Shown piece by piece: positions 2,327 to 59,205 of a stretch of 64,000 nt of DNA. The stretch comes from Euglena gracilis. Taxonomy: Eukaryota. How positions within the stretch are numbered: position 1 is the first letter of the stretch; the number at the start of each line of letters is the position of its first letter. A program made the position numbers and the translations under genes. The notes under the pieces are model-generated. The model searched no databases. It was not told the DNA's origin and worked only from the letters and a program-made list of their open reading frames with translations. The DNA lies in NCBI GenBank assembly GCA_039621445.1, contig CP154954.1, forward strand, positions 39,765,816 to 39,829,815, written 5' to 3'.

Positions 2327-2654
2327 AAGATGAGCCTCGCTCATTTTCACTAACCTCTCACCCAGACACCGAAAACCCCCTCTGTAAACCCCTCAGTATC
2401 GTATCGCTCTTAAAACCTTATATTCACAGAGACCACAGGCGACCTGTGGCGGCACAGGGATTGATGAGGAGTTTCTCCTTGTGGCGAGGGCCAAACCACA
2501 CGTTTCCCTGGGCACAGTGCACGGTCAAGAAGAAGTCCAGAAAAACCAGAAGTCCAAAAAATGAGACACGGACAACCTCTCATCCCCAGCTGTCCCCTTC
2601 GAAACTTTGTTGTAAAATTTTTCACCCACCATGGACTCCTCCAAGCAATCTCAC

Positions 2655-3140
2655 TATTTTTTGAAAAAGATGCTGCAACGAGGGAGGAAAGCTCGCCCGA
2701 TGGTCCACGTCCCGCCGACGATGTTGTCATGAGATACGACACGGATGGACCAGCGGCGATCGATGTCACCATCCGACACCCCTAGGCACCATCTCCGACG
2801 CGCCCTGGCACGGATGAGACCTGAAAGTGGCACAAGGCTCAAGAGGAGGATAAGGTGAGGAAGTATGGCGAGTGGTGCCAGCGGAGAGGCTGGACATTAA
2901 TCCCCTTCGTAGTGGACTGCTTTTGAGAGATGGGGGACGCGGCACTCACAATCGTTACCAATTCCGTTCACCTCCTTGCCGGCCAGGCGACGCGTGGGAG
3001 AGAAGGGGAGTTGAGGGCAATTGCTGGCAAGCACTCAGTAAGGTAATGGCCAGAGAGTTGGCGGGGCAACTGGTTTTGGGGGCAGTGCGTGAGGACTCGG
3101 CCGTTGGAGGCGTTGCCGAAGCTCGTCGACCGTACGCATA
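2655..3140 (+). pseudogene. CRE-like non-LTR retrotransposon, restriction-like endonuclease C-terminus (degenerate)
   Basis: RPADD..AAIDVTIRHP, then EEDKVRKYGEWC..W.LIPFVVDCF, then WQALSKVMARELAGQL. This fits the PD..D / K..KY RLE pattern. Frameshifted. Confidence 0.7.
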
Positions 3141-3559
3141 AAAAGAACAGCACGCCCGGCCCCTAACGCCCAGATATTTCTCAAAGCTGTGTATGCAAAG
3201 TTTTTCCAAGTGCCCATAGGGCCTGTCAGTACAACAAACTGAGGTGCGCTGGTGGAAACAACTGTTGCCTAAAGTGGACTTCGACTCACAAGTACGGCAG
3301 AGGACCTCTACAGCAGCCAAAGCAAGCAAGACTCTACACCAGTCACACTACCAAATTAACACGACGGAGCCGCAACGGCACCCCGAGGAGCCGCAAGGCA
3401 GGAAAGACAACAAGCTGACCTGCGGCACCTGACCATTCCCCCCATAAACCTGCCGAGATGCCGCCCACACGCCACTGGAAACCGGGATCACCGGCCCACC
3501 GGTCATCAACACCCAGACCGTAAACGGCACTGACACCCGCAACCTCCCAATTGCCTGCC

Positions 3560-4260
3560 CAACCACTCTTACTCACGTTGCCGAAGAAATCCGGAAGCTG
3601 AGCAACAACGGCCTCGCCTCGGGCTGTTACTATTGTAAAAGCTCTGCCCTATTACCTTCCGTCCCTTCACAAGCGTGCATAGACTGTTGCCTCTGTATAT
3701 AGCCTTACTGCACCAAGCTCCTCAAATCCAGTAGGCTGTTCCACTGGTCGGTGGACTCGGTTCGCCCAACCACCGTTCGGAAGGTTGCACAGCTCCCTAT
3801 GTCTTGGGCCTGCCCGCTGCCGTGGACATCCTTTCCAAGTGCGCTAACGATTGTTTGCGACACCCCTCAACGAACTTGGCCAGATTGCACCACTGCCCCA
3901 ATGGGCCAATGACAAAAACTTGATCTTCAGGCACAGTCTCCACACAATACATAACGTTGGTGGAATCAGCAGAGCATGCTTTCCCGCCAGAAAACACTTT
4001 CTGACGCATTAAATGGACCTGAAGCTATACGCTTTGCAAGCCAATGCCAACCACGTGCCGTGGCGTGGGCCGCTTTGACACCATCTCAAGGACTGCGCAC
4101 CCTTTTACCCACAGCTGAATTCCGCTGCACACTTCGTTGGTCCCTCGGAATGACCCTCACACCAATGGAATCCTATCCCAAACTCTGTCCCAAATGCTTT
4201 GCATCATCATAAATTCTCGGACACCACCTCGTTTGCTGCAAATCCTACTTCATTACCACA
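3560..4260 (+). pseudogene. CRE-like non-LTR retrotransposon, post-RT region and zinc knuckle (degenerate)
   Basis: QAVPLVGGLG near 3740, then AVAWAALTPS.GL..L...EFR..LRWSLG and CPKC....*ILGHHLVCC. Confidence 0.65.
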
Positions 4261-4321
4261 GGCAAGCTTCACAGCCTGTAAAGAAAACGACCTGAATTAC
4301 CGTTTACTGCCTGGGTACATT

Positions 4322-5026
4322 TGTGCGGGATAACCTTCTTTGCTTCTCGGCTTGTTCGAGGTCCATGTGGATTCCCTGCCACCGCATAGGATCGATTACC
4401 CTGTCCAGTTGAGTCTCAACTCCCCGGGTGGTCTTTGTTAGAAATTGTTTCATCTCCTGTTACTTGAAAAGATCTTTTCCTCTCTCGGGGTTAGTGTGGG
4501 GTGGGCCCTTGGGTGGTCTCTGGCCACAGAACGGGTATAAAAAGCAGGCAGGTCTTGCTAAAAGCAGCGAAAGGCCTTCAAATTGCGGGTCGTGGTCAGA
4601 CATTGACGCAAGGGAACAAGCGCTCCTTAGGCACACCAGCAGCAACAATTCCTGCTTCAGAATTCACTTCAGACCACAAGACCTGTACGTGAACAGAAAA
4701 TTAACTTAGAATTCAAATGAACCTTGACAAACTTGAATTGACTTCAAACTGGAACCAGATTTGCCGTTGCAAATGTATAATCAGATTGAGGAAGGACAGA
4801 ATAGTGACCGAGCCTTGTAGAAGTCAGTGTGGCCAGCCTTGTGTAAAATGTGGTCCGAGGTTAAAATTCCGTCAGGAAGGGATTATCCTTATTGTTTCGT
4901 CATTGAAACTGTAGGTCCCTGGTTAGTCTAAGTTCTCTGTTTAGTTCTGGGGCGCCTCGGTTAGCTTTTAAGGTTGGCGCCTGAGGTTAGCCAACTTGCC
5001 AGGACACTCAGCACTCCTGACTCACA
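4322..5026 (-). repeat. LTR of Gypsy family B (probably a 3' LTR), ~705 bp
   Basis: TG..CA ends (minus strand TGTGAGTCAGG...CCCGCACA). Homologous to 44791-45500, 47849-48564 and 51480-52197. Its upstream flank (AACTCCTTCTAAGGGGTG) resembles the PPT-like flank at 53237-53255. Confidence 0.75.
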
Positions 5027-5408
5027 CACCCCTTAGAAGGAGTTGTTTACAACTCTTCTCGAATCACTTAGGAAGGGATGCGGAGTGCGTTTGTTAAAAG
5101 GGGCTGGACCGCTCATGTGCTGGTCACAGGCCGGTCCACCGTCTTCCCTGCTCGAAGGGGGGAGCTGGCCTGGTGCTTGTTCTTTTTTTTAAGGGGCTGT
5201 CCCCCCCAGGTCCCTTGTCGAGTGGGGGAGGGGGCAGGCGCAAGGCGCCCATCACAGACCCCGCCCTTTTTTCAAAGGGGTAGCACCCGTTTGGGGGGTT
5301 CCGCCTGCACCTGCCAAGCGATCAGCCACCGGCCAGGTGCTAATTCTTACAAAAAATCAAGCGAAGGCTGAGTCAGGGTCTTCCGGTTAAAATCATGCAG
5401 TGGCAGGG

Positions 5409-5890
5409 TGTGAGTCAGGGGTGCTGAGTGGACAAAACAACACAACCTAACACTACCCAACCTGATGACTCCGCAGTTAGGATTATGAAAATTATATATT
5501 AGGAATTACAAATAAGCTGACTCCATCTGTCCCTGCACAGGGCTCTGTCTCTGTTTTTGTCTGTTTCAAGTTCAAGAACTGAATTATCTTGGTGGCATCA
5601 GTTATCATTCTTACCCTGGACATTACGTACCTTGGTCTGTGGATTCATTTGTACTTCATTTGTGGCTTTGCTTGCTGGATTGCTTGTGGATTTTTTTTTA
5701 AAGGAAAGGTGTGAGCCAAGGAACCCACCTGTTTTCACCCAAAAAACCCACCCAAAACAAGAAAAATGCAATTTCTGGAACAATCCGCGAGGGGAACTGA
5801 AAACACCCTGGGCAGGGTTAAAGATCCTACGCAACGGGGTTCCGGCCCCGAGGGACTGGAAACTCAAGGGCAGGTACCACGAATACAACA
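5409..5890 (+). repeat. 5' LTR of family A (482 bp)
   Basis: Starts TGTGAGTC and ends ATACAACA directly before the PBS. Its 3' part is homologous to 50840-51172, which ends at the same ATACAACA. Confidence 0.85.
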
Positions 5891-5902
5891 TGGTAGCAGA
5901 GG
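5891..5902 (+). promoter_or_regulatory. Primer-binding site, initiator tRNA-Met type
   Basis: TGGTAGCAGAGG lies immediately after the LTR terminal CA. Confidence 0.85.
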
Positions 5903-5991
5903 TAGTTTGCCCCATTTTTGATTCCCCTCCAACATGCGGCTACGAACAAGAAACTGAAAAACGACAAGAAACTGAAAAGACTGACGCTGAC

Positions 5992-8900
5992 ATGCCAGCT
6001 GCCGAAACCGCCATCGCTAGGGTGGTGGAGCCGGCGGATGGCTGTCCAGCTCTGAACCAAACACTGGATGTGCCAGCTGCCTTAACCGCCATCGCCAGGG
6101 TGGTGGAGCAGGCAGATGGTTTCCCAGCCCTGAACCAAACACTGGAAACGCCAGCTGCCTTAACCGCCATCGCTAGGGTGGTGGAGCCGGCAGATGGCGT
6201 TGCCGCCATGTACCAGTCACTGGACAGCAACAGGTGGACTGAAACTGAACAAAACGGCACAGACATTACAGTGCCACAGGCAAGCAATGACAGCCCACGT
6301 GTCATTGCCATGGTGCACATGGACCAGAACGACACTGAAAAGACCGGTCCATCACCAGACTACACTGAACTGGACGAAAACAACGAACCGTACTTTGACG
6401 AACAGGTGTTTGCACCACAAAACAGGCTCCAACTGCCAGAACAGGACACTCAGAACAACCAAAGCAGGCAAACCGCAACAGCACAGCAACCAGGAACCCA
6501 GAGTTTTGCTCTGGTGGCGGTGCGACAGAGCCCGGAACAACCTGACCGCCTCCAGGGTGAAACTGAAACTTCGTACCAGGAACCATCGTACAGCTCGTAC
6601 GAGATTCCGCAGCTGGAACCACAGAACCAGGACACTGACTGGGACTGGTGGTCGAACTTTGCTTACGAAACTGGACAGGTGACCCAGGAATTTCAACAGT
6701 TCAGACACAAAACTGAACAGACGAACCAGCAAACGGCAGAAACACGGCAGCAGCTACAGCAAAAAACGACGGAATGGGTCAGCGAACTGCACGCAACAGT
6801 CAACAGACAGGCTGAAGCACTCCTGACAGAAATCAACGGCAGACAAGAAGAACTGACAACAGTCCTCGCAACAACGCAAGCGAACATGGAACTGGTGACA
6901 GTGAACCAGAACAACCTGTACCAGGAACATTTCAACGGAATGTCACAGCAGATCGCGGAAATCAGGGAAATGTCTGGCTCAACGGGCGAAAAACTCAGGG
7001 AATTTCACAGTTTTCTGCAGATGGCTGGTGGAAATGCACAGAACCAGGGTGAACATCTGGTTGGTTTACTGCACCGACAGCGAGAAAACGAAAAAACAAC
7101 TGCAGAACTGCAACAGAGAACGGCTGTGGCATAAGAACGGGTTGCAGGAATCACAGGCGGCGTCCAAGCGGTGAACAGAAAAGTGGACGAAACTGTGGCA
7201 ACAGTTTTCAGAAAGGTTGAAAACCTCAGAGGCGAAATCAGCAGTGTGGTGGAAAGAATTCAGAAGGACATGGGCAGTGAAATCGGAAATCTAGCAGGAC
7301 GGGTTCATCAGCAGGAAACAAAAACAACAACAGCCATTCAAAACTGTGATTACCTGCACAAAAAAATGGTCGAACTGCAGAAAATACCAGATCAGCAACA
7401 GCAGATTACACAGCTGAACGAGAAAATCGGCAGACTGAAACGACAGGTGGAAAACCTGACCTCCAACGAAGAAAAACACAAGCAACGCACTGAACGACTG
7501 AACCTGGAGGTCGGCAGCCTGGGTCACAAGGTGGACGAAACAGCCCAAACGACTCAAAAACTGCTGGGTGGACTGCAGAAAGGTGCCATTAAGACGGGAA
7601 CACATGCCACAGCGGAACAAGCTAAATGGCTGGAAATGACATCTGCCACTAGCTCAATGACAACCAGGGTCGGTCAAATGGAAGCAAAACTGGCTGGTCT
7701 GACAAAAAAAACGGCAGAACGGGAATCGCATGACAACAGCATCCCGCAGCACTTACATGCTCTGACCACGGAACTGCAAACACAGCAGAAACGGTGGACA
7801 GAACAGTTGGTGACCCTGGACAGAAAACACAGCACAGTGACAAAAACGACTGAGTACCTGACCGGAAAACTGGAAAGGGAAAACACCCAGCAAATCACAA
7901 ACCCCAGCCCTAGCCTGGCTGAAATACCCAACCTTTTTGAAAATTTCAGCATTTCTTCTCGCCAAGCCTGCACAGGGGCCTTCGGGCCGGAGACAGGGGC
8001 CGGCCCCCCGACCAGTGGGCCTCCCGCGAGGACCCAGGCTGGACAGCCAGGGGAAGCCACGACAGCCCAACGAACGGAACAGCCCACCCAGGGGACAGAC
8101 AGGGCCGCGGGCCAACGGGGATCAGGGACCGCACAACCCCAGAACCTGCCGCCAGCCTCGAGGGGCCAGCCCACTGGGCAGGGACCCCACAACCCCTGGC
8201 CCAGCCACCGCCAGCCCTGAGGGGCCAGACCGTAGGAAGCCAAAGGACGGGGACCCCAGAACCCCAGGCCTGTCAAACGGGGGCGGGGACCCCACAACCC
8301 CTCACAGGTACGTTCAGCCAGAGCAGCCAGCACTGGGGTGCTGAAACACCACACCCAAAAATGGAAGGAGTAGCTGCAACACTGGGGACCGTTAACTCGG
8401 CTTCCATGGTGGGGCAGCTCATCCAGCAAAGAAATAAAGACTGCCTTGACACCTTTAATTGCCCAACTGACTCGACAAACGGAACAACGACCGACTGCAG
8501 TGCCGACCAGCCCAGCACTCCCGACGAACCCGACAAGCCCTGCACCACAGCCAACCCAGCCGACGCAGCAGAATCAACAGCCAGTGACGACACAACAAAA
8601 CCCACAGTTCCGGACTCGGGGCTTGTTCATGTGGGCAGACGAAACAGAAACTCAGAAAACAGCCACAACAACCTGGGTGGGACCCCAGGTGGGGTCTACC
8701 CAAACTGCCATCCATCACATAGGAGAGGAAACAGTGGTGGCACCGGTTGCAACGGCCCCGACGGCATCCTTCGGGCTGCTGCTGGGTCCAGTGGGCGCGG
8801 CAATGACAAAAAACCTGGTAAGACCAACACTGCAGGGGAATTTCGTAGATTTTGCCGTGAAATTTCCAATGCACCTGCAACGTGTGTCAGCCAGTCAGGG

Positions 8901-10179
8901 GTCCGTGACTGATGACCTGAAACTGTCACTGCTGGAGAGCAGCCTGGACAGTGCCAGTAAACTGGAACTACAACGCAGACAGGAACGCGGTGAGAAAATA
9001 AAATTCCAGGAATTTTGGAACTGGGTGCGCCAGAAATACGGTGGAGACACGCAATCAGCCATCAAAGACGAACTGAAAAACCTGAGACCAAAAACGGAAG
9101 GAAAACTTACACTGGAAGCGTGGAGGGAGTTTGATGCCCATTTCAAACTCCTCTACAGCAGGCTGGAAAACCCATCAGAGGAAGACGCTTACAGCCCGGT
9201 GGCTGAAAAAATGCCTGAAACACAACGCAGAAGCTGCATCAGGGAACAGGACCGCAGAAATCAGGACAGACCAACACTGAAACTGAAAGGGGTCACGAAC
9301 ATTACGATCCCAGATGCAACGACGGAAGCCGTTCGTGACCTGGTGGCAGCAACTGTGGGTACAGGTGAGAATTTTCAGGTGGCACGAGACGGACAAAACT
9401 TGAGAATCCATCTGCACAGCAGCAGAGCTGCTGAACTGCTCCTGATGAAAAACGGTTCAACGCTGCTGACTGGACACAAACCACACTTCACACAGGTGCA
9501 AGCCAGACTGACTCTGGACGAACTGTTCGAACGGGTGGAAACTGAACTCAGGTGCCAACAACAGTCAGACTCCCTAGGTAAAGGGTACAACGGCTGGCAG
9601 AACCAACCTCGTGAAAACAGATCACGGTCGATGGACCGCAGGGGTAACGTTAGGGAAGTCAAGGAGGAGGAAAAAACAAAATCCAGAAGTCGGACACCAC
9701 CTTCCAGATCCCGACCCAACTCCCCTGGACCTCGAACCACAACACCTGAAAAACCAAGACCCCCCTCTCCACGCCAGCAGGTGCCCATGGCAGTTTCAGA
9801 ACAGCCTGGCCAGGGACGATACACCAACTGGTAACACTGGAGACAGAACGACTAAGGCAAAGGCAAAGGAAAGAAGAAAGGTCAAAACTGGGGTTCAACC
9901 CAAAACTGGAACCAGAACCAGAACTTGAATCAGAATTACGGCAAGGGCTACGATTCCGGAAAGGGATACAACTCTGGGAAAGGATACGATTCTGGGAAAG
10001 GGAGCGGGAAAGGAAAAGGTACAGGGCAGCCACAGCCACAGCCAGCAGTAACGAAAACTGAACCACAGCCACAACAAACCAATTCACAGGGGCCAGCCAA
10101 CCAGCCACGGGGACAGCCAAAGGCAGAAGCAGCCTCCAGCAATCGCTGGCACCCAGTTCAAAATGCAGAACGGAAGTGA
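5992..10179 (+). pseudogene. gag: ORF1: long coiled-coil region plus Gag-like domain, interrupted by in-frame stops
   Basis: ORFs 5557-7134, 7171-8220, 8446-9834 and 9925-10179 share one frame. There is a heptad-like Q/E/L-rich region, a helical Gag-like core (FQEFWNWVRQKYG..LEAWREFDAHFKLL), an SR-rich tail and GKGY repeats. The start is uncertain. Confidence 0.7.
5995..6225 (+). repeat. 78-bp (26-aa) coding tandem repeat, about 3 copies
   Basis: PAAETAIARVVEPADGCPALNQTLDV / PAALTAIARVVEQADGFPALNQTLET / PAALTAIARVVEPADGV. Confidence 0.9.
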
Positions 10180-10413
10180 AGGGGCTGCTGCCTGAGGGTA
10201 GGGGACGAGGGTGGCGACTCTCTGCAGACACAACCGAAACAACTAGACAAAACAAGGGAACCAGGTCCAGAGCCGCAGCGGTCATACACACTGGTTAAGG
10301 GAGGTAAGAAAAAACCTCAAAAGAAAAACATCCTGACAAAAAAGCGACTCCACAGCCCAGAACCGAAAAGGGAACAGGTCAGCTGCAGGTTCGGCAGAGC
10401 GGCTTCACGGTGG

Positions 10414-11796
10414 GTGTCTGAAAACTACCACGTGAAGGAAGATAAAATGACGGAAATTCTCTCACACTTCGGAGTCCAGCCCCAGCTGGATGCCTTTGCA
10501 ACGGAAAAAAAACAAAAGATTCTCGCAATGGTGGCATCGAGCAGCCATGAGGCCACAGACGCATTTGAGAAAGACTGGCACGGAAAACTGCTGTGGATGA
10601 ACTTCCCATTCAGCAAAACTTCACAGGTGGTGAGAAAAATTCAAACAGACGAGGCCCATGCACTCCTCATGGTACCCAGATGGGTTCACAGAAAGTGGTA
10701 CGGAGAAATCAAAAAACTGGCAGTGATGTCAATGTTCATTTCAGCGAAAACAAAACTGTTCGGACAGGGTGACAAGAAAAGCAGGGAAATACCGTGGCCC
10801 GTGGAAGTGTTTTTGGTATGCGGACACAAAACACGGTGCAAGTACCTACCAGGTTTCCACAAACATTTCACCCCCCTACACCCGACATCCAAGGTGAGGT
10901 TCGGCACAGCCAACGAGTACCCGCCAGTGGAGGACCAGGTGGAGGGTGGTGAACAAAAAACCGGTTTGGCAACTGAAAAACAACAGAAACACATCAGAAA
11001 AGTGCAGGAGGCAGCCACAGCGACACCAGAACGGGCCACAGCAGAAAAACTGAAACCGAAAATGCTGGACCTGTTCTGTGGAACAAAGTCAGTCAGCAAG
11101 GTGTATGACGAAATGGGTTTCGAGGTGGTGACAGTGGATTCAGACCCCAGGTGGAAAGCGGATTACCAGGTGGACGTACTGGACTGGGACTTCAGGAAAC
11201 ATTTCAAACCTGGTGACTTTCACACGGTGGTGTGTGGGGTTCCCTGCACAGAATTCAGCATTGCCCTGACGACAAGACCCAGAAACCTGGAAAAAGGAGA
11301 CAGCCTTGCAAAGAAAGCCCTGGAAATTGTGGAATTTCCGCAGCCGCAAAAATGGTTGTTGGAAAACCCAAGGTACGGATACCTGAGAAAACGAGATGAC
11401 ATGAAACCGTACCCGTACGTTGACGTGGATTACTGTCAATACACTGACTTGGGTTACAAAAAACCAACACGAATCTGGGGCAGCCCTGACATCCTGCAGG
11501 TACCAGCAAAACGGTGTGACGGAAAAACCTGCAAAAACCTGGGCCCGAACGGTGGTGGTCACCTGGTGAAACTCAGCAACAAAACAACATCCCAGCCTTC
11601 AAAAAAATTCAGGATCCCAGACAAACTGATTCAGGACCTGGCGGGGTTCCACGAACTACGGCAAACCAGCCAAGCCCAGGCCGCGCAGCAACCACCGCTG
11701 CAGCAGCCCAGCCCTGCCCAGACTGCACGACAAAACATGCTCTCACAGCCCAGACCAGAACCCGACAGGTCAACAGCCAAACCCAGATTCAACTGA
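10414..11796 (+). CDS. Fused Dam-like amino-methyltransferase (about 10414-10860) and C5-cytosine DNA methyltransferase (about 11060-11660)
   Basis: Open 460-aa frame. N-half: LDAFAT, DAFEKDW, LLWMNFPF, LMVPRW...WY. C-half: motif I MLDLFCG (11062), motif IV GVPCTEFS (catalytic PC at 11242), motif VI LLENP (11362), DYCQY..GYKKPTRIW, terminal RIPDKL. Confidence 0.9.
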   Translation: MSENYHVKEDKMTEILSHFGVQPQLDAFATEKKQKILAMVASSSHEATDAFEKDWHGKLLWMNFPFSKTSQVVRKIQTDEAHALLMVPRWVHRKWYGEIKKLAVMSMFISAKTKLFGQGDKKSREIPWPVEVFLVCGHKTRCKYLPGFHKHFTPLHPTSKVRFGTANEYPPVEDQVEGGEQKTGLATEKQQKHIRKVQEAATATPERATAEKLKPKMLDLFCGTKSVSKVYDEMGFEVVTVDSDPRWKADYQVDVLDWDFRKHFKPGDFHTVVCGVPCTEFSIALTTRPRNLEKGDSLAKKALEIVEFPQPQKWLLENPRYGYLRKRDDMKPYPYVDVDYCQYTDLGYKKPTRIWGSPDILQVPAKRCDGKTCKNLGPNGGGHLVKLSNKTTSQPSKKFRIPDKLIQDLAGFHELRQTSQAQAAQQPPLQQPSPAQTARQNMLSQPRPEPDRSTAKPRFN

Positions 11797-11848
11797 CAAA
11801 ACAGATCCAGACCAAAACATTCGGCTTCAAAAACGACTGTGTGAACCG

Positions 11849-12394
11849 GTGTCCAAACTCCTGCTGGGGCAGGCCATCAGCAGAAAAAAAGCAAAACAAC
11901 TCCTCATCGAAGTCCGTGCTGTTTTGCCAGACGGCAAAAAAACGTTCCTACAGGCCCTGATTGACACGGGAGCACAGGCAAACCTGGTGGAAAAGAACCT
12001 GATTCCCCAACAAAACTTCAGTCGTTCACAAAAACCCCTGGCCATGATCACAGCGGACGGAACAAGGATGGAAGAAGGACTACACGAAGTCACAGTGGAA
12101 CTGCAGTTTTCATCAAGGGTGCACAACACGGACAGGACAAGGGAGTGTTCCACCATTGGAACATTCCATGATGCCGACATCCAAGTGGTTGCCATCCTCG
12201 GGTATCCGTGGATGGAACAACACCAACTGGGGGTTTTCCCACACCTACAATCACTAGCCCTCATAGGTGAACCCCTGCGGCTGCTGTCCAGTTGGCACCA
12301 GCTGAAGGAACAAAAACACAGGGAACCTAAAATACACCAAATTCAGAAAAACATTTCGGCAGTGCGGGCAATGAATTTTCAGATTCCTGCTTAA
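11849..12394 (+). pseudogene. Retropepsin aspartic protease
   Basis: ALIDTGAQANL (D at 11963), flap ITADG, and AILGYPW. Confidence 0.9.
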
Positions 12395-12599
12395 GAGGGC
12401 CAGGACGAGGAAAGACTGTTCGAAGACGAAACAGCACTGGAAACACTGGCTAAACAACTTCAGAAATTGGCAAAGAAATCTGACAGGGTACACCGTGTTG
12501 TGGTGCTGCCAGAAGGACATGAAACACAAGGTGAAAAGGTGGCTGAACTGGTGAAAAACCTGCGGCAGGACTATGAAGGAGTGGTCTTGCAAGACAAAA

Positions 12600-13420
12600 T
12601 CTACCCAGACCCCCCAGAACGCGGACCACTGGGATTTGGAAAGATTGAGCTGAAACCTGGAACAGTGGCAAAAAAGCAAAGACCCATCCACATGACAGGA
12701 GAACGCACTCATCGACATGGTGGACGAATGCGTTAGGGACCTGAAAGTGGAAGACGGGAGGAGTGACTGGTCCAGCCCCACGTTTGTGGTGGCCAAAAAA
12801 GGTGGAAAGTGGAGAGGCGTGGTGGATTTCAGAGCACTGAACGAGGCAACAATCACAGATGCCCATCCCCTGCCTGGGATAGAAGACATCCTAGTTCAAC
12901 AAGGACAACGGGCCATGTATAGTGTACTGGACCTCATAGACGCATTCCATCAGGTGCTACTGAGAACAGAGTCCAGACCCTACACCTGCTGCAGCACACC
13001 TAAGGCAACAAAACAGTGGAGAGTGGTGTTCATGGGAATGAAAAACGGTGTACCGATTTTCCAGAGGGTGGTCGAGTACAGCCTGGAGGAGGTACAGGAC
13101 ATTGCAAACCCCTACGTGGACGACATAATCGTAGGAACCGTATGGCAGGGGTCAGAAGACAAAACCCTCGAACAACACGACAAGGACATCAGAAGGGTGA
13201 TGGAGGCACTGGAAAAACAGTAACACCGTGGCAGACATCAAGAAATGCAAATTTTTCGTGAAAGAGGTTGAACTCTGTGGACATTTGCTGGGTGGTTGAC
13301 AACGAAAACCAGCACCTGGAAAACTGAGGGCCTTGTAAAAATGAAAGGAACCAAAAACGGTCACAGCCCTACGGGCATTCCTGGGATTCACAAACTATTA
13401 TGCCTCATACACTCCAGGGT
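12600..13420 (+). pseudogene. Ty3/Gypsy reverse transcriptase (frameshifted)
   Basis: SDWSSPTFVVAKK..WRGVVDFRALN..DAHPLP, SVLDLIDAFHQ, MGMKNG, YVDD (13113), KCKFF. Confidence 0.95.
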
Positions 13421-13428
13421 ACGCGGAA

Positions 13429-14097
13429 TTGGCTGCAGGCCTGATGGAAAAACTGAAAGTGAAAAAGGGACAGGGAAAGAAAGGAAGCCTGACACCTGTG
13501 TTTTTCGGTGAAAAGGAACGAACCGCTTTTCAGACCATCAAAGAAAAACTGCTCAGAAGCCCCAATCTGGAAACGGTGAACCCAGACAAACCGTTCATAC
13601 TCAGGGTGGTTGCAAGTGGCAGAGCCGTAGGTGCGGCTCTGGAACAATTTGGGGAGGACACTCCAGAAAAACCAGAACCAACAACAGCCATGACCAAAAA
13701 AACAGTACCCGTAGCTTTCTGTTCACGAAAGCTGACACCTGGGCAGGTTCGCTCGTGGTCTCCTAGGGAAAAGGAGACCTACGCAGTGATCCTGGCCCTG
13801 CAAAAATGGGCTTCCTGGATAGGAATGCAACCGGTACTGGTGTTGACGGACCACAAGTGCATTGAGGCATGGGCAACGGAGGTTCTGGACACTCCCAGTG
13901 GACCAGCTGGACGTAGGGCTAGGTGGCACGAACTGCTTTCGCAGTTCGACATAACCGTAGCATACGTACCTGGCAAAGGCAACACGGTCGCCGATGCCTT
14001 GAGTAGGTGGGCCTACCCCGCCACACAGGCATTCGCCGACGTGAGTATCCACGGGAGTGAGGAGGACGACCGACTCATGAAAGAAATCATCAAATAG
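13429..14097 (+). pseudogene. RT connection and RNase H
   Basis: PFILRV.ASG.AVGAAL, PVAFCSRKL, EKE.YAV, TDHK, YVPGKGNTVADALSR. Confidence 0.92.
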
Positions 14098-14649
14098 GAG
14101 GAAAAGGAACAGAAAACTTGTATGGTGATCAACGTGGCAGACCTGGCACAGGCACAAAAACAACTTCAAAAACCCGTCACTGTGGCAGTCACAACAAGGG
14201 GGGGAGCCAAAACGGGTGAAGATTCGCCCACAGTGCCTGGTTCAACGGAAAACGGTGACACCCCTCAAAAAATTCAAAAACACCACAAAAACCTGCAAAA
14301 ACGTCAAAGAAGTGGGTTGTGAAGGAAGCGACTGTGGTGGAACCAAGCAAAAAACTGCAGAAGCAACCCCAAGGGAGACCACGGATGAGGCAGGAAACCT
14401 GATCCGACCAGACCAACTAAAAAAAAAAACCCCAGAAAATCCAAACACGGCCGAGGGACCATCCACTGAGGAACACCCAGAAAGGCGAAGACCCCTGGAA
14501 GAGGACCCTGTGGAACCCCTAACAACAAACGACTCAACAAAACAAAAGGACGCGCAAGGTGCGTCATCCTCAACGGGGACACCCGTTGGACCTCCATCAA
14601 GCGGAGTGCACGCCCCGGAGATTCAACAGGGGGAACCGAAAGGGGTGAT

Positions 14650-15770
14650 GGACAGGGAATGGAAGAACGAGTACGAAAGTTGCCCAAGGTGGGGACCTGT
14701 GCTCAAGGACCTGAAGGAAACGGGGTTCAAAAACTGGCCTGACGGGTACCGATTCGACAACGGCAGGCTCTTCAAAAACGGTCTCCTGTGTGTACCAAGC
14801 GGGTTGACTGGAAACGTAATTCGGGAACATCACGAAACAGCCGGGCACCCAGGGTCAGCCCAACTTTGGGACCAGATGGGAAGGTGGTTTGTGTTTGCGG
14901 ACCACCAGGATGCAAAAAAACTGACAGGCAAAATGATGACCATGTGTGAAACCTGCCAAGCAACAGAACCCAGCCACCTACCATGCAAGTGCCCCATTGA
15001 ACCGACACCGATTCATGCACACCTCATGGACAGTGTTGCTATCGTTCTGTTCTCTCTACCTGAAACGACCTTTGAAGTGAAAAAATATGACACGTTGGCG
15101 TTGTGTGTGGACAGGCTGAGTGGGTGGATGGTTGCAACCTCCCACCTGGCCAAGGGACTCGCAGCGGAAAAGGTTGGAAAGGAAATGTACAAACAGTGGG
15201 TAATTTTTGGGATACCCTCGGTGGTGAGCTCCGACCGGGGCTCCCAATTGACAGCCGGTTGGTGAAAACATTGTGCACTGTACGTATCCGTGTGGCGTAC
15301 GGGCAGGGGTACCCTGGGTTGAACTCCTACCGAACGCCTTGAAGGCCCTACACGACGTCCAAGGTGAAACGGGACTGTCACCGTACGAAATTGTGTTTGG
15401 CAGGCACATACCGTTGGCGGGATTGCCATATCAACCACAAAGGGAAGCGGAAGGGGCCACAGCGTTCTTGGGAAGGATGAAAGAACAAGACCAGTGGGTG
15501 AGCCTGGCCCTGAACGAAAAACAGCGTGAACGGGCTGAAACGGTGAACAGAAAACGCAGAGAACCACCTGCGTTGGAAATCGGCTCGAAAGTCTGGTATC
15601 AACCCGAAAGAAAACCTGGCACCGACAAACTCGAACCGAAGTGGAAAGGACCTGCGGTGGTGTTGGAACGGGTAGGACAACACTCCTAGGTGGTTGAACT
15701 ACGACCTGGAAACCGACAACCTGTCCACCGTTCACAACTCAAACCCCACGTGGGAGACCACTACAACAAA
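14650..15770 (+). pseudogene. DDE integrase with HHCC zinc finger and GPY/F-like motif (core partly deleted)
   Basis: HHETAGHPG..CETCQ, CVDRLSG, FGIPSVVSSDRGSQ, TGLSPYEIVFG, KLEPKWKGP. Confidence 0.92.
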
Positions 15771-15824
15771 ACCCCTGTCCCCCTCTACTTTTGGTCGGGC
15801 AAAGCACAGGAGTTGGAGGTTGGC

Positions 15825-16037
15825 CCGGATAAATGGGAGGTTGACAAAGTGCTGAACCACCGCAGAAAAGACGGAAAACTTCAATTTTTGATTCAGTGGA
15901 AAAACTGGGACCCGTCTGACACTCAGTGGGAACCCTTGAACCACTTCTTCCTCCGAACCAACAAAGATGTGGTCCAATATTGTAAGAAACAGGACCTGGC
16001 TGTGGATATGAGAGAGTTGCTTGATGGGATGGAGTGA
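15825..16037 (+). pseudogene. Integrase C-terminal chromodomain
   Basis: WEVDKVLNHRRKDGKLQFLIQWKNWDPSDTQWEPLNHF retains the aromatic residues. Confidence 0.9.
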
Positions 16038-16489
16038 CGCATGTCGCATAGCCCAGCGCTCTGTCACAGATGCCGACACGTCGCCACCCCCAACAACCCC
16101 GTCGCCAACCCCAACCCTACCACCCCCACCAACCTCGACAAGCCCCCTTCACCATCCCCACCATACTACCCCCACCCCTACGTGCCCTTGAGGCCCAACT
16201 TCCTTCCCCCTTGTGCCTCCGAACATCAACACCAACGCAAACGAGGCCACCCCCACCACCATACCGCCCCCACCTCCATACCAACCCCCAACGACAACCC
16301 TCACCACAACACCCTCAAGAGCTCCCACAGCCACCCCCACAGCGGAGCCCCAGCCCGAACCCCCCACAGCCGGAGCCACCGAGCCCTCCGCGGAGGCGGA
16401 GACGCTCAGGCTTCTCCAGCCCGGGCAGTTTACGGGGGGTATCGCTGCCCCTGGACAGCCCCCCAGCAACACCCCCCCGCAGTCCACGA

Positions 16490-18610
16490 ATATCCCCCCT
16501 TTGTCGCTGGATCTGGATCGGTGTTCTCGTGGCTGCTCCGCTACTCCCCGTAATTCCGTCGGAACGTGTCAGGTTGTTTCTGACATCTCAGTTCTGTTTC
16601 CACCTTTGCAAAAAAATTTTCCAGGGAGAGCTTTGTATGTACCACCATGAATCTGAATTGCTGTCCTGGGGCCAGGGCTGTGCCTTTTTTCATCATCAGC
16701 TGCTGGGATGCTCTGCTGCTTTCCAGGCTAGTGATGAAATCAGTTCCATCGGCTGTCACAAGGAACCTTTCGTCAGCCCCAAGTGTGGCTGGCACCAGCC
16801 CCTTCAAATTCAGGGTCGGTGTGTCTTGGTTCCTTCTTTATTGTTCTCGAATGCAGTTTCAGCGCATCATTTCAGGCATCCATTCAGCGAATAATCCGTA
16901 TGAATTGTCTGCGAAGGGGTGTTCGAATAAACTTTAGAGCAGTTTGAAGCGTGCTTCAAACACCCTCCGTGCCCCCAGAGTCAGTTTTCCATCGCACCTG
17001 GGTTTCTGGTTTTTCAGCTCCTCCTTTATTGCCAGCTGGGTGTCCCTTCCTACTTTCGGCAGAGACAATTCCAAAATTCCTGACACCTGGTTTTTTCTCC
17101 CCGTTCTTGTCGTCTCTGGAGCTCCAGCCGGCCCGTCTCGTCAAGGCTTCCCTCCAAAATTGTTAGTTTCCTGTCATCTATGAGGTGTCCTTTCCGGCTG
17201 ACAATAGGTTCAGGTAAACGGGGAATTTAACATAAAAACCTGAAAAAATTTCACTGGAGGAGCGGTCTGACCAAGTCTTTTGCCAGGTCTGCACCCACTG
17301 GTCCCATCAGCAGCCCAATGGATGGGTCATCCTGTGCTGCAACTGGGGCGACAACTGATTCTTTACCCACATGAAAAATAAGTGTGTATGTGCTGCACAG
17401 TTGGGGACCTGTGTTTTGTGGTCCTGGGTTTTCTTCTGTCACCCATGTGAACACATCCCGCGTTCGCGGCTGTGAGATCTGGCTAGGTCCCGTGTTTTCC
17501 CGTTGCTGAAACTGCTGTTGCATCATGTTTTTGATTTCAAACAACAGTTCCCTCTACAGTCGCTGCTGGTGATCCAGCATTGGGTACGTCGGTTTCGGTC
17601 GGAGTTGAAATGGTTGGGAGTCGGCTGAAAGTTCAAACACAGGTTGGAGTTCGGGGTGATGGGTCTTTGACACGGTGTGGTCCTGTCTGATTGAAAGTTA
17701 ATAAATTCTTCTTGAAAAGTTTGCACCATTACTTTTTTCCGTCAGAGTCCCAACCCACACGTGGCACAGGTTCGCGGGGTCCTTGGGTTCCCTTCCAAAG
17801 CTGTCCTTGAGGCACTCAGGTCCCCTCCCTGGGCTGTGTTAGGGGATATTGGGGCCGTTGGGGTCACTGGCTGTGGTGCTGAAGCTGCTGGGAGTGGGGC
17901 CGGGGTCGCTAGCTGGGCCCCATCGGTTCTGCCCAAGCCTTCGGCTGGGGACCAGATTCCAGCTCCTGCCGTGGTGGCTGTGGCTAGGCGGCTTTGCAGC
18001 CTTGCTGCAGCAGCTGGCTGGGGTTCTTGGGTTTGCACCGTCCCGTTTGGCGGTTCCGTTGTCCGTCCGGACACCTGGCCACTGGCCCAGTGGCTGGGGT
18101 TTCTGGGGTTTTCCCCGTCCCCTGTTGGAGCCGGTCGCTGGGAGAGCTAGAGACTGCTGAGAAAGAATAAAATTGAGGGTTTAAAAACTTTTTTTGTCTT
18201 TTGTGCCGGTTCAGTCAATTTAACCTTTTTTCGGTGGCCTCCCATTTCGTTTGCCACATTTGGTTCCGATTGTGGAACTCGGCAGTCAGCGATCTACACT
18301 GCAGCCAAATTCCAAAGTGTTGTGTTTCTTGCAGTGTTGTTCATGTGATCAGGTCTGTCAGCTGTGCCTCCAACCGTGCCACCTTGTTTACCATCTGTCC
18401 CAGTGTGGAAAACAGGTCGATCCACCTGGCCTGGTCACTGGCTTCCTGCAACCCAGTCTTGAAAACCCCCTTTTGGATTTTCTTCAGTGCCATCCGGAAT
18501 GTCTGAGCAAATTCCTCAAGTTTGTGTCCTAGCCCGGTCATTTCCTGGTTCAGACGGTCAAATCTTCTTTTGTTGTCATCTTTTGGAGCCAGGTTGTTCA
18601 AACGGCTGGT
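16490..18610 (-). pseudogene. Gypsy family B ORF1/Gag fragment
   Basis: IGLLMGPVGA..KDLVRPLLQ and AKVETELRCQKQ are homologous to family A Gag and to 55990-58020. Confidence 0.8.
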
Positions 18611-18629
18611 CAAAAGGGTTTGTTGTAAG

Positions 18630-19365
18630 GGTTTGTTGTAAGGGGGCTGGGCCGCTAACTCACAGACAGCTTCATTCCTGGATAGGACAGTTGTGGACCC
18701 GTTGCAGTGGATGTGACAATCCCCCAGTCCCTTGCGAAAATTCACCCGCTGCGGAATGCAGGTAACCATTCATAATGGCAAACGCGCATACCAAATATGA
18801 TGCAACATGCCAACAACTGGGCTGGCGGTTGATGCCATTCGTCATGGACTGCTACGGGGGCATGGGGCAAGAAGCACGTTCCTTGATGGCCACCCTCCTC
18901 AAGGCCCTTCTGGGGCAGCGGGGAGGGTGGCAACAGCGGGCGACAAAAGCAGACACTTCGCAAAGCCTGTCATTCAGACTAATCACAGAAATAACCAGAC
19001 AGCTCGTTTGGAGCTTGTATTCTTCCAAAAAAATCACCCTGTCTTCCGCCCACTCACCATATGCTGTCTGGAGGCCTCCGAGCACAAAATCTCACCCCTG
19101 CCCAATATATTTTGGAGGTGACCTTTGCTCGTCAACCACTAACCACTGACCTCCGCACCCTGAACAAGTATCACTGAGCACTCTTTTGTACATTACACCC
19201 ACGGTATAAACAATCCACGACCTGTGGCGGCACAGGGAGCCACAAGGGGGTTCCTCTTGTGGCGAAGGCCAAAAGAGACGTTTCCCTGGGCCCGGGGCAT
19301 GGTTTTGTGAAGCTGTGCTACCCACCTGGGAACACAAAAAAAGTGATCATTAAAAAAAAAGGAAA
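18630..19365 (+). mobile_element. 5'-truncated CRE-like non-LTR retrotransposon (RLE end, 3' UTR, A-rich tail)
   Basis: VAVDVTI..KYDATCQQLGWRLMPFVMDCYGGMGQEA..RQLVWSLY. The 3' UTR is shared with 2430-2525. A-run near 19353. Confidence 0.75.
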
Positions 19366-19879
19366 ATCGGGGAATTGGAACCTAAATGGGTACATGCATC
19401 AGAACTATCCTTGGCCAGAAGGAGCCCTTGGAGAGAAGAACCTGTGTGTTGGCCCGCGAAGAGGGTCGACAATTGTCATGTTCGCAGTGCCTGGGATCTG
19501 AAGGCACGCAATACCCGGCCATTGCGCACCAACCATGCAACACGGATTAAGCAAATGAACCGAGGGAATTGGACATGCGAACCACCAGTCCAAAAGTTAC
19601 ATTGAAGACCAAACGAACCCTGAAGAAAGGGATCACAAACAAAGAACGAATCAGGAACGGCCAAAAAATATATCCTGACCATCTTCTGGGGTACAAGACG
19701 GGATCAAGAATACTGGATTAAGTTAGTCGCTCTCTCTCACCATCAATTCCATGCCAATGGCCCAAATTCCATGCCAAAGAAGATCAGGTTGATGACAATT
19801 TCCGCCCTGGCGATATCTTAATTTCTCGCCTTGCCAGCGAATGCCTGATCCAAAGCGACGTCACCAACCGTCACACAAA

Positions 19880-20235
19880 GACCCAAAGCAAAACTGACCA
19901 TTTGGCAAGAAAAACAAGAAGCAGACAAACACCAGAAATGTGATGAAACTTGTTTGAGACGAGGCTGGAGTCTCACTCCGTTTTTGCTTGACTCCTTTGG
20001 CGGCATGGGACAGCAAGGTCTTTCTCTGATTTCCACTCTGCTTAAAGCCTTGTTAAGGAAGAGAAGAGTTGACCTCAGCGGCGAACCGAAGCAGAACTGT
20101 GGCAAGGACTCTCACTCAGCCTGGCCAAAGAAATCTCTAAACAACTGGTTTGGAGCTTCTATCCTACAACTATCCTGTCAAATGACACTGACCTGTCTTC
20201 CGGTTGTCACCGCCCATATTCCCATTAAACACTTT
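19880..20235 (+). pseudogene. CRE-like RLE C-terminal fragment
   Basis: EADKHQKCDETC..RGWSLTPFLLDSFGGMGQQG..KQLVWSFY is similar to 18775-19060. Confidence 0.7.
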
Positions 20236-23395: not shown

Positions 23396-23396
23396 G

Positions 23397-59200: not shown

Positions 59201-59205
59201 CAAGG

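Follow-up and report, generated by a model that had tools for sequence, protein, structure and literature searches.

A probable EpiLTR-type retrotransposon in Euglena gracilis: a degenerate copy with Dam-like and C5-cytosine methyltransferase domains between Gag and protease

The 64,000 nucleotides of Euglena gracilis DNA analysed here (the window) contain what is, with a probability of roughly 0.8, a degenerate copy of a retrotransposon of the EpiLTR type, in which positions 10414-11796 correspond to the methyltransferase cassette and a single Gag-Pol polyprotein would read coiled-coil, Gag, Dam-like N6-adenine methyltransferase, compact C5-cytosine DNA methyltransferase (DNMT), protease, reverse transcriptase, RNase H, integrase and chromodomain. 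What the domains are and how they are ordered and folded is established, as are the retention of these domains by relatives and the decay that the window copy has undergone. In kind the element is Ty3/gypsy-type: a chromodomain lies at the C-terminus, and Gag and protease are separated by a cassette of a Dam-like and a C5-DNMT domain. In the usual picture it is the host that methylates the element; retrotransposons with DNA-mark writers of their own turn this around, and the richest toolkit of this sort known combines methyltransferases for adenine and for cytosine with a reader of histone marks. The preliminary description of this DNA had considered that the presence of both enzymes in one chromodomain element might be novel. 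That claim falls, since a single preprint, the only report of this rare design so far, describes DAM-, DNMT- and chromodomain-bearing LTR retrotransposons from two species, Euglena gracilis and Cymbomonas tetramitiformis, under the name 'EpiLTRs' (Fernandez-Moreno et al., bioRxiv 10.64898/2026.05.21.726589, May 2026), so that at the level of kind the architecture was already catalogued. The window holds an element of this kind with an apparently high copy number, many metagenome relatives with reshuffled modules and a virus-like DNMT.

Organization and decay of the window copy

The features of the window are the following.

4328-5027, + strand: repeat module of about 700 bp with a TATA-like motif, upstream of ORF1; candidate 5' LTR or promoter region
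5521-8220, + strand, frame 1: coiled-coil-like N-terminal part of ORF1; weak coiled-coil-type Pfam matches, stop at 7132
8374-9834, + strand, frame 1: Gag-like region; no Pfam family, protein-level homology to window pieces
10405-10842, + strand: Dam-like N6-adenine methyltransferase domain of the PF05869 type (Pfam, family HMM, fold)
10843-11052, + strand: linker joining the two methyltransferase domains, variable and disordered by prediction (pLDDT; unalignable among relatives)
11053-11649, + strand: compact C5-cytosine DNA methyltransferase of about 200 aa (PF00145, family HMM, fold)
11765-12394, + strand, frame 2: aspartic protease (D-T-G motif; Pfam matches below cut-off)
12696-13223, + strand, frame 3: reverse transcriptase (PF00078, 74.5 bits, above cut-off)
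13345-14097, + strand, frame 1: RNase H (PF17919, 70.3 bits, and PF17917, 69.9 bits, above cut-off)
14129-15689, + strand, frames 2 and 3: integrase, zinc-binding domain and core (PF17921; tblastn of P0065, P0070, P0075 and P0067)
15690-16037, + strand: chromodomain at the C-terminus of pol (PF00385, 41.1 bits, cut-off 25.1; stop codon 16035-16037)
29243-27868, - strand: DIRS-like pair of Dam and tyrosine recombinase (family HMM, Pfam)
62506-61209, - strand: another Dam-DNMT cassette, decayed further than the first (blastn, tblastn, family HMMs; stops seen)

Dam, DNMT and chromodomain lie on one strand in one gag-pol array, as traced by Pfam, family HMMs and tblastn, and the pol order of protease, reverse transcriptase, RNase H and integrase, with the chromodomain at the integrase C-terminus, is present by Pfam and by tblastn alignments collinear with full-length relatives. 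The matches to Pfam RT_RNaseH, RT_RNaseH_2 and Integrase_H2C2 are of a type that we take to be typical of Ty3/gypsy elements; the integrase zinc domain (PF17921) scored 25.0 bits, just under the cut-off of 25.5, and the integrase core is visible by homology to P0065 only (tblastn). The Gag-like region has 48-63% protein identity to three other pieces of the window (tblastn), and the N-terminal part of ORF1, which includes three 78-bp tandem units at 5993-6226, has homologous pieces upstream of gag in other copies within the window. A comparable layout was read by eye in the translation of the metagenome locus L001, whose ORF1 has a long N-terminal region and then a gag-like part with Cys/His-rich stretches. 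The order of Gag, methyltransferases and protease given in the preliminary description is therefore borne out by Pfam, family profiles, predicted folds and relatives. Of the further parts that it placed around the cassette, protease, reverse transcriptase, RNase H, integrase and chromodomain were recovered; LTR and primer-binding site (PBS) were not. No flanking LTR pair was found around 4300-16500 by repeat search, self-blastn or a sensitive blastn comparison of 1-8400 with 15900-30000, a reading of 4200-5580 and 15980-16700 by eye revealed neither convincing TG..CA ends nor a PBS, and no target-site duplication of the element was found in the window. For this reason the assignment of the window copy to the LTR elements rests on its pol genes. 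These absences mark an incomplete copy and say nothing against LTRs in the family. The sole match of the sensitive blastn comparison was one of 86 bp, between 2440-2525 and 19218-19303.

The module of about 700 bp at 4328-5027 (+) recurs in the window at 45499-44792 (-), 48558-47849 (-) and 51486-52198 (+), the four copies having 70-72% identity (self-blastn), and when they were aligned copy A had nothing but the module in common with the other three; self-blastn and sensitive blastn gave no 3' partner of the 4328-5027 module downstream of pol. At the other end of the element, the agreement between the window and contigs of other copies stops at 16045-16054, 8-17 bases past the pol stop codon, so the 3' end of the window copy is missing. 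As a whole the window is a mosaic in which retroelement pieces lie nested and inverted (self-blastn, tblastn). Its long ORFs outside the element have retroelement Pfam matches or none, with no host gene found among them, and no Rfam family matched within the 64 kb.

The window copy is dead, an ordinary decayed repeat. ORF1 carries seven in-frame stops (7132, 8218, 8233, 8371, 9832, 9853 and 10177, all in frame 1), tblastn with relatives places five frameshifts in pol, and the frame changes at the DNMT/protease junction, where residues 1-450 of P0002 align in frame 1 and residues 452-543 in frame 2 (tblastn); in P0002, P0004, P0005 and P0063 the protease is joined in frame to the DNMT, and contigs of other copies have one base fewer at 11762. 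Within the Dam domain, a +1/-1 frameshift pair garbles about nine codons (~10505-10532) by comparison with P0002 and with contigs of other copies, which have one base fewer at 10505 and, in three of four runs, an extra G behind 10532 (a single contig in each run; absent from X16). Contigs of the four runs differ by one base near four of the five sites at which the window changes frame, and at the Dam lesion.

The frame 10180-11796 (+) stays open for 538 codons, and the open 460-aa frame reported earlier at 10414-11796 is its conserved part, with a start that coincides with that of P0002 (88% identical). This stretch, open over 1.6 kb with stops and frameshifts in the adjoining parts of the element, could be taken for a methyltransferase gene domesticated by the host and kept after the death of the element. 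Such an origin is very improbable: adjoining decayed segments are open for similar lengths (537 and 486 codons), there is no plausible start or promoter of its own, the frame runs on into the protease in relatives, and the coding sequence is itself damaged, by the garbled Dam codons, by a catalytic tetrad reading NFPF and by a Leu in place of a nearly invariant Trp of the DNMT. The tetrad, noted as a caveat in the preliminary description, is confirmed by the codons at 10600-10611 (AAC TTC CCA TTC) and by the alignment, in which all other full members of a ten-sequence set (A1) have NPP[F/Y/W]. With NFPF, the compensated Dam frameshift and the stops and frameshifts elsewhere, the window copy is incapable of marking its cDNA or its insertion site.

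The two methyltransferase domains

All the methyltransferase motifs listed in the preliminary description are present in the translation. Against Pfam profiles the two halves behave differently: the DNMT exceeds its cut-off, while the Dam match of the window copy (PF05869, aa 93-187 of the frame, E 6.8e-5) reaches 23.0 bits and remains below the gathering cut-off of 28.1. Relatives do exceed it, with 33.5 bits in P0065, 31.5 in P0070, 29.4 in P0075 and 37.0 in P0084, and within A1 (n=10) the Dam Pfam match is found in eight sequences (best E 1.3e-11). Scored with family HMMs, which were built from this family itself, the window Dam and DNMT domains obtain 210.6 and 337.7 bits, respectively. 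An AF2 model of the cassette (mean pLDDT 82.7) consists of two folded domains and a disordered linker, with pLDDT below 50 at model residues 165-194 and 200-217.

Modelled alone, the Dam half has a pLDDT of 88.4 and a pTM of 0.84, and is predicted to adopt an amino-methyltransferase Rossmann-type fold like that of phage Dam. In BFVD its matches are models of phage DNA N6-adenine methyltransferases (E 1.7e-7 and weaker, TMt 0.46-0.62), and the best solved match in the PDB by Foldseek is CAPAM (6irw_B, E 1.5e-4, TMq 0.60), the other best-ranked PDB chains listed being largely RNA adenine or rRNA methyltransferases, e.g. KsgA/Dim1 and tRNA m1A58. CAPAM is an RNA cap m6Am methyltransferase, and these matches are what would be expected if the Dam-like domain did not write 6mA on DNA but methylated RNA (genomic RNA or its cap-proximal adenosine), acted during reverse transcription on the RNA strand or the hybrid, or served as a non-catalytic binding module, leaving the DNMT alone to mark DNA. 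Results given in the preprint point the same way: in the one published test, expression of eukaryotic DAM domains in dam- E. coli brought no rise in 6mA, the N-terminal catalytic subdomain of bacterial Dam is absent from them, and an RNA:DNA hybrid was raised as a possible substrate (10.64898/2026.05.21.726589). The same source, however, reports that in three species DAM-LTRs carry more 6mA than other LTRs do. The sequence family, moreover, is PF05869, that of phage DNA Dam, in agreement with the BFVD matches; and since the PDB apparently holds no PF05869 member, the CAPAM match may reflect only the shared fold of NPPF-type amino-methyltransferases. A dead module is difficult to reconcile with the retention of NPP[F/W/Y] in 36 of the 38 Dam domains of relatives that cover the motif. 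We regard a role other than DNA adenine methylation as a serious but unlikely alternative, and a DNA N6-adenine methyltransferase is the reading retained below.

The DNMT half matches DNA_methylase (PF00145) at aa 294-397 of the frame with 24.4 bits (E 2.4e-5, cut-off 22), a match that covers only positions 2-111 of the 324 in the profile; eight of the ten A1 sequences have this Pfam match too (best E 1.7e-7). Aligned through the family profile, motifs I (AdoMet), IV (Pro-Cys) and VI (Glu-Asn-x) correspond to those of DNMT1; in A1, four residues (P355, C356, E395, P397) are invariant and a fifth, N396, is nearly invariant (>=90%), and PCxx[F/Y/W]S is kept in 131 of 138 DNMT domains of the family. 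A short Cys/His-bearing region appears to stand in for the large target-recognition domain usual at this place, and the C-terminal half, modelled with high confidence, is kept among family members (YCQ..WGY.KPTR, two Cys, one His and [KY]R[IV]P). In the PDB, Foldseek aligns this half with DNMT3A/3B, DNMT1, M.HaeIII and M.HhaI at E about 1e-7, DIM2 being one among many matches.

By sequence and by model, the window DNMT is closest to small viral DNMTs, and to that of Tetraselmis virus 1 in particular (A0A2P0VN45, 218 aa; 36% identity, TMt 0.81, E 2.3e-20 by Foldseek against BFVD). A stand-alone ORF of 209 aa at 9998-10627 of the marine virus-like contig L006 is similarly related (38% identity, E 1e-37). 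Both share the compact architecture over their full length; they differ in being free-standing genes and not parts of a polyprotein. A protein atlas search also placed small viral DNMT clusters best, with a score of 0.85 that is below its reliability level, in agreement with the L006 and BFVD matches. In a midpoint-rooted FastTree phylogeny, built with no outgroup and no support values, transposon-borne and stand-alone DNMTs are partly separated. The designation of L006 as a virus was not adopted, as Pfam gave no matches for the neighbours of its stand-alone DNMT gene.

Relatives and comparison with known elements

The cassette recurs within the window itself. The second copy aligns with the first at 67.4% over 1141 bases by blastn and at 47-56% amino acid identity in three frames by tblastn, and is flanked upstream by a Gag C-terminus (63150-62971) and downstream by a protease (61185-60970), both on the - strand, that is, in the same order. 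The search for relatives returned 61 of near-equal length and 22 longer ones; both Dam and DNMT were detected in 45 of 220 fetched relatives, and a metagenome scan gave 44 loci, of which L001 alone covers both domains and the other 43 the DNMT only. The order gag-Dam-DNMT-PR recurs in single uninterrupted ORFs of independent metagenome contigs (P0002, P0004, P0005, P0063). Three further single ORFs (P0065, P0070, P0075) each encode an unbroken PR-DAM-DNMT-RT-RH-IN-chromo polyprotein, in which all domains from Dam to chromodomain are recognized by Pfam and the N-terminal protease only by tblastn and phmmer against the window protease.

Given the mosaic nature of the window, and the preprint's own warning of nested insertions and assembly artefacts among Euglena DAM-LTRs (10.64898/2026.05.21.726589), the cassette might be thought a one-off nested insertion, as the preliminary description had allowed, or an assembly chimera inside a gypsy element. 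This is hardly credible in view of the second copy and of the single-ORF relatives, and contigs from four runs cross the Dam, DNMT and protease boundaries. The Dam-DNMT cassette is, as judged from these alignments, a conserved feature of the family. The retention of catalytic motifs in both enzymes, whereas the linkers cannot be aligned, suggests selection on catalysis in the family.

The fetched relatives display every one of the six possible orders of DAM, DNMT and protease, a tally that rests in part on our own family HMMs because Pfam misses or under-scores several relatives; the orders in P0090 (no Pfam match) and P0087 (a weak DNMT match only) come from these HMMs alone. In Euglena the copy number appears high, and copies in better condition exist elsewhere; run X1 has 6945 contigs that map to the stretch. 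Runs X15-X20 (0.14-0.19 of words) hold family contigs that are 93-95%-like, which is no proof of transcription or habitat, the evidence from the RNA side consisting of contigs only, with two of three 'RNA' run labels guessed and DNA carry-over possible.

The window element shares with the EpiLTRs, as these are presented in the preprint, the LTR-type (Ty3/gypsy-like) backbone and the union of a PF05869-type DAM, a C5-DNMT and a chromodomain in one unit (10.64898/2026.05.21.726589). Its cassette is related to that of Cymbomonas P0084 (DNMT, 34% identity over 181 aa, E 2e-21; Dam, 24%, E 7e-5), which has a different order, Dam-IN-chromo-DNMT, in which the DNMT follows the chromodomain and ends pol on the 3' side, whereas in the window both enzymes lie between Gag and protease. 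The main text of the preprint gives no Euglena domain order and deals with neither metagenomes nor protease nor gag. To its account, the present analysis adds the six DAM/DNMT/PR orders, a DNMT nearest to that of Tetraselmis virus 1 and a predicted Dam fold nearest to phage Dams and CAPAM. According to the preprint, the EpiLTR DNMTs of Euglena and Cymbomonas form a monophyletic clade, sister to DNMT4, acquired separately from the DNMTs of Symbiodinium retrotransposons, and the DAM-LTRs are considered to have captured Dam from DIRS elements. DIRS retrotransposons have the same PF05869-type Dam but encode a tyrosine recombinase and lack DDE integrase, chromodomain and C5-DNMT; a DIRS-like Dam element lies beside the DAM-LTR in the window (29243-27868), as the preprint describes for Euglena.

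Other retrotransposons that carry C5-DNMTs have been described by de Mendoza et al. (2018, PMC5890265), from whose text the following comparisons are drawn. KnitGypsy-Dnmt3 of Klebsormidium nitens likewise has a C5-DNMT inside a gypsy-type LTR polyprotein, for which purifying selection was reported and self-methylation of the cDNA proposed; its enzyme is a Dnmt3 located in the Pol ORF, with no Dam reported, whereas the window has a compact, viral-like DNMT of about 200 aa together with Dam. In Symbiodinium, SymbioLINE-Dnmt and SymbioDIRS-Dnmt3 are also retrotransposon-borne C5-DNMTs, and the SymbioLINE enzyme is, as in the window, of an orphan lineage and on the ORF1 side, but their backbones are those of LINE and DIRS (tyrosine recombinase) elements, without chromodomain or Dam (PMC5890265).

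Possible activity of intact family members

A wider reading, which we put forward tentatively and hold to be possible though rather improbable, would make the window element one tip of a large and mostly unsampled environmental radiation of dual-methyltransferase chromoviruses, with separately released, free-acting DAM, DNMT and protease and a DNMT taken from, or shared with, the small DNMTs of giant and other viruses of eukaryotes; the cDNA of intact elements would receive both 6mA and 5mC from the elements' own enzymes, the 6mA possibly on an RNA:DNA intermediate, and each insertion would arrive in a chosen epigenetic state. The occurrence of all six DAM/DNMT/PR orders upstream of the reverse transcriptase is what is expected if the three enzymes are released separately and do not work as one machine. 

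On the main reading, the two methyltransferases of an intact element would be made in step with Gag and, being flanked by disordered linkers, would probably be cut free by the element's protease, packaging in the particle and cleavage of the linkers being pure inference. Once free, the enzymes would work within the particle or beside it, on the replication products of the element, the DNMT placing 5mC on double-stranded cDNA and the Dam-like enzyme 6mA on cDNA or on an RNA:DNA intermediate, while the chromodomain would steer integration by reading histone marks. Such self-methylation of the cDNA is suggested by domain content, and the metagenome relatives offer intact natural sequences for testing cDNA pre-methylation. 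By this route a new copy could arrive with marks fitting a host genome that itself methylates CpG. Methylation of CpG by the host is plausible from the composition of the whole window, in which the observed/expected ratio is 0.54 for CpG and 1.28 for TpG+CpA.

The methyltransferase cassette

Positions 10180-11796 (+) comprise 538 codons without a stop, of which 10414-11796 is the conserved 460-aa portion; the closest database relative, the protein P0002 (88% identity), starts exactly at 10414. The preliminary description had read these 460 aa as an open stretch of the ORF1 frame encoding a Dam-like domain followed by a C5-cytosine DNA methyltransferase (DNMT). The stretch is stop-free, and the Gag-like and coiled-coil-like regions upstream also lie in frame 1. 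Pfam, a ten-member alignment of the family (A1) and the predicted folds agree on both families, so that both domain calls hold. In Pfam, the DNA_methylase family (PF00145) matches residues 294-397 with 24.4 bits (E 2.4e-5), exceeding its curated cut-off of 22 bits, and Dam (PF05869) matches residues 93-187 with 23.0 bits (E 6.8e-5), short of its cut-off of 28.1 bits. This weak Dam score is a trait of the window copy and not of the family, since Dam is matched in 8 of the 10 A1 members (best E 1.3e-11) and the full-length relatives P0065, P0070, P0075 and P0084 exceed the cut-off, with 33.5, 31.5, 29.4 and 37.0 bits, respectively. DNA_methylase is likewise found in 8/10 members (best E 1.7e-7), and DNMT motifs I, IV and VI of the A1 profile align with mammalian DNMT1 chains (E 5.5e-4).

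Modelled with AlphaFold2 from an alignment of 56 rows, residues 64-510 reach a mean pLDDT of 82.7 and form two confidently folded domains with a disordered linker between them (model residues 165-217). The PDB matches of this model include the catalytic domains of DNMT3A, DNMT3B, DNMT3C, DNMT1, DIM2, M.HaeIII and M.HhaI (E about 5e-8 to 7e-7). In a viral structure library, a 218-aa protein from Tetraselmis virus 1, annotated as 'putative cytosine DNA methyltransferase', ranks far ahead of all other matches (E 2.3e-20, 36% identity, TM 0.81 on target), and the Dam half matches phage 'DNA N-6-adenine-methyltransferase' models at ranks 11, 17, 24, 31 and 45 (E 1.7e-7 to 2.1e-5).

A truncated and decayed element

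The predicted domains give the element the PR-RT-RH-IN-chromodomain layout of a Ty3/gypsy chromovirus.

Features of the element around the cassette
4328-5027: ~700-bp module with a TATA-like motif, four occurrences in the window
5521-8220 (+): long coiled-coil-like region, upstream of the cassette, frame 1
8374-9834 (+): Gag-like region, upstream of the cassette, frame 1
Downstream of the cassette (+): protease (PR), D-T-G present, Pfam matches below cut-off
Downstream (+): reverse transcriptase (RT), Pfam 74.5 bits
Downstream (+): RNase H (RH), Pfam about 70 bits
Downstream (+): integrase (IN) zinc domain, Pfam 25.0 bits against a cut-off of 25.5
Downstream (+): integrase core, solely by homology to P0065
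Downstream (+): chromodomain, Pfam 41.1 bits

Protease, RT, RNase H, integrase and chromodomain are as first described; the LTR and primer-binding site could not be confirmed, and repeat finding and self-comparison detected no direct repeat flanking the element in the window. Its 3' end is missing, since contigs of other copies diverge from the window at 16045-16054, 8-17 bases beyond the pol stop, and directly behind lies a fragment of another copy's gag in inverted orientation. This fragment (16550-18613, -), comprising gag and coiled-coil sequence and abutting the truncated end, is 79.5% identical to 56612-58016, both being broken at roughly the same point in gag. The module at 4328-5027 is a candidate for part of a 5' LTR or of a promoter; both flanks of its relatives extend differently. 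Within the N-terminal ORF1 region, three in-frame 78-bp tandem units (5993-6226, +; 81-86% identical) encode a repeated 26-residue peptide, and an 86-bp direct match of 80% identity (2440-2525 and 19218-19303, +) brackets the whole nested-element block.

The window copy is dead. Frame 1 has stops at 7132, 8218, 8233, 8371, 9832, 9853 and 10177, and pol, compared with uninterrupted relatives, reads through frames 1, 2, 3, 1, 2 and 3, which amounts to five frameshifts. As had been noted, the Dam catalytic tetrad is NFPF (AAC TTC CCA TTC), where all other full A1 members have NPP[F/Y/W]; compared with P0002, a +1/-1 pair scrambles about nine Dam-domain codons at 10505-10532, and the DNMT has Leu in place of a nearly invariant Trp. 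When contigs from four public runs were compared with 9800-16100, one base was absent in other copies at each of 10505, 11762 and 13226, and some runs had extra bases behind 10532, 14266, 14356 and 15264. These differences coincide with the Dam lesion and the vicinity of four of the five pol frame changes; the fifth, near 12700, has no row in this comparison.

In the public sequencing run X1, 6945 contigs match 9800-16100, and the organism of that run therefore carries the family in very many copies; ~1-kb contigs 93-95% alike in three runs that are certainly or possibly RNA hint at its transcription.

Relatives, module orders and probable function

A second, more decayed cassette, preceded by gag and followed by protease, lies at 62506-61209 (-); it is 67.4% identical in DNA over 1141 bases and 47-56% identical in protein. 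As this copy and the many dual-domain relatives show, the cassette is not a one-off. A word-indexed protein search gave 61 near-length matches, among them P0061 and P0062 with 9% query coverage and unrelated Pfam domains, and 22 longer ones. When profiles were searched exhaustively, 14366 cluster representatives had E <= 1e-3; of these, 4602 reached E <= 1e-10 and 900 reached E <= 1e-30, and the best 150 of the 14366 are mostly DNMT-only proteins of 200-300 aa. Architectures were tallied with two A1-derived HMMs and phmmer with the window PR, RT, RH, IN and chromodomain pieces. Among the 220 sequences (219 fetched proteins and ORF2 of metagenome locus L001), a sample biased by having been fetched by similarity to the window cassette, DAM and DNMT occur together in 45; PR was also placed in 22 of these, which present all six possible orders.

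Module orders in the 22 sequences
DAM-DNMT-PR: 4 (P0002, P0004, P0005, P0063), the window order
PR-DAM-DNMT: 7, including the complete PR-DAM-DNMT-RT-RH-IN-chromodomain polyproteins P0065, P0070 and P0075
DAM-PR-DNMT: 5, including L001
DNMT-PR-DAM: 3
PR-DNMT-DAM: 2
DNMT-DAM-PR: 1

Pfam supports several of these orders; it finds nothing in P0090 and a weak DNMT match in P0087, so that the orders of these two rest on the A1-derived HMMs. The putative catalytic residues are kept across the family: of the 38 Dam domains covering the motif, 36 have NPP[F/W/Y] (the exceptions being NPPC and NPAP), and 131/138 DNMT domains have PCxx[F/Y/W]S, with stricter patterns for motif I and ENPR matched in 104/138 and 87/138. 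Stand-alone compact DNMTs of ~209 aa, 28-40% identical to the cassette DNMT half, occur on marine and other metagenome contigs, at locus L006 (9998-10627, +) and 42 other loci (within L002-L044), and are suspected to be of viral origin; the L006 neighbours are large ORFs in which no Pfam family was found, one with a Walker-A-like motif.

The combination, whose novelty the preliminary description had left unverified, is already in print. A full-text literature search returned one paper with this architecture, a bioRxiv preprint of 22 May 2026 (Fernandez-Moreno et al., 10.64898/2026.05.21.726589), whose main text describes 'EpiLTRs', LTR retrotransposons with DAM, DNMT and chromodomain, in Cymbomonas tetramitiformis and Euglena gracilis, and calls the combination previously undescribed. 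The Cymbomonas EpiLTR has its DNMT at the pol 3' end, whereas in the window it lies between Gag and PR, and the DNMT of the Cymbomonas protein P0084 is 34% identical to that of the window (E 2e-21). The Euglena EpiLTR is said to have a 'structurally distinct configuration', its order being unstated in the main text, and the window element may be that family itself. The same main text makes no mention of protease, gag or metagenomes. The present analysis adds how widely the family is spread in public metagenomes, the occurrence of all six module orders, the likeness of the compact DNMT to that of Tetraselmis virus and the proteins to which the Dam domain is structurally closest.

In intact members both enzymes would be translated with Gag and Pol as a single polyprotein, delimited by variable disordered linkers. 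Their order relative to the protease varies freely, which suggests release from the polyprotein and independent action. They would then mark the element's own reverse-transcribed DNA, with integration steered by the chromodomain. This is the most economical reading, as proposed for DNMT-bearing elements (de Mendoza et al. 2018, PMC5890265) and in the preprint (10.64898/2026.05.21.726589); the window's CpG o/e of 0.54 and TpG+CpA o/e of 1.28 fit a CpG-methylating host. It is rather unlikely that the Dam domain instead has an RNA, hybrid or non-catalytic role and is not a simple DNA-6mA writer. Against simple DNA-6mA writing speak a negative E. coli assay of eukaryotic DAMs and the absence of an N-terminal subdomain from these domains, both reported in the preprint, as well as a predicted CAPAM-like fold. 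The Dam half modelled alone (pLDDT 88.4, pTM 0.84) has as best solved match CAPAM, a cap-specific adenosine N6-methyltransferase (6irw_B, E 1.5e-4, TMq 0.60), and methyltransferases acting on rRNA or on RNA adenines make up most of the other top-ranked chains among the matches listed. Self-marking appears a reasonable interpretation of the cassette, inapplicable to the dead window copy.

Other elements in the window

Further Dam-bearing and repeat features
1403-975 (-): distant Dam-like domain, NPPW intact, family HMM 76.5 bits, 23% identical to the cassette Dam; no DNMT detected beside it up to the window end
24802-26436 (+): RT ORF (24802-25995), then a weak Dam match (26115-26436), near the following pair
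29243-28812 (-): Dam-like domain, family HMM 30.6 bits, then a tyrosine recombinase ORF (28566-27868; Phage_integrase 27.8 bits)
34667-33813 (-): zinc-knuckle gag-like ORF, with a protease-like match at 33471-33142 and the Dam of 29243-28812 further down
53054-64000: second family element, apparently inverted internally

The arrangements at 27868-29243 (-) and 24802-26436 (+) are DIRS-like, and the Dam at 1403-975 (-) is grouped with them; the presence of these DIRS-like Dam elements beside the DAM-LTR element resembles the Euglena mixture described in the preprint (10.64898/2026.05.21.726589). The region 28812-34667 (-) is possibly another DAM-bearing element of different layout. In the element at 53054-64000, the + strand carries the 5' region, the coiled-coil part and gag as far as about 58025; the gag C-terminus, Dam-DNMT, PR and RT residues 1-73 occupy 63150-58356 (-), and RT residues 69-175 are back on the + strand (63368-63688), a layout due to genuine inversion or else to misassembly. 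The window repeats seem to differ strongly in deamination history: by 4-kb bin, CpG o/e is very uneven, with low values of 0.23-0.30 in the bins of 24-32 kb and 40-44 kb against 0.80 in that of 48-52 kb and 0.99 in that of 32-36 kb. Within the 48-52 kb bin, the stretch at 48-50.6 kb has 62% GC and long overlapping ORFs on both strands in which no Pfam family was found.
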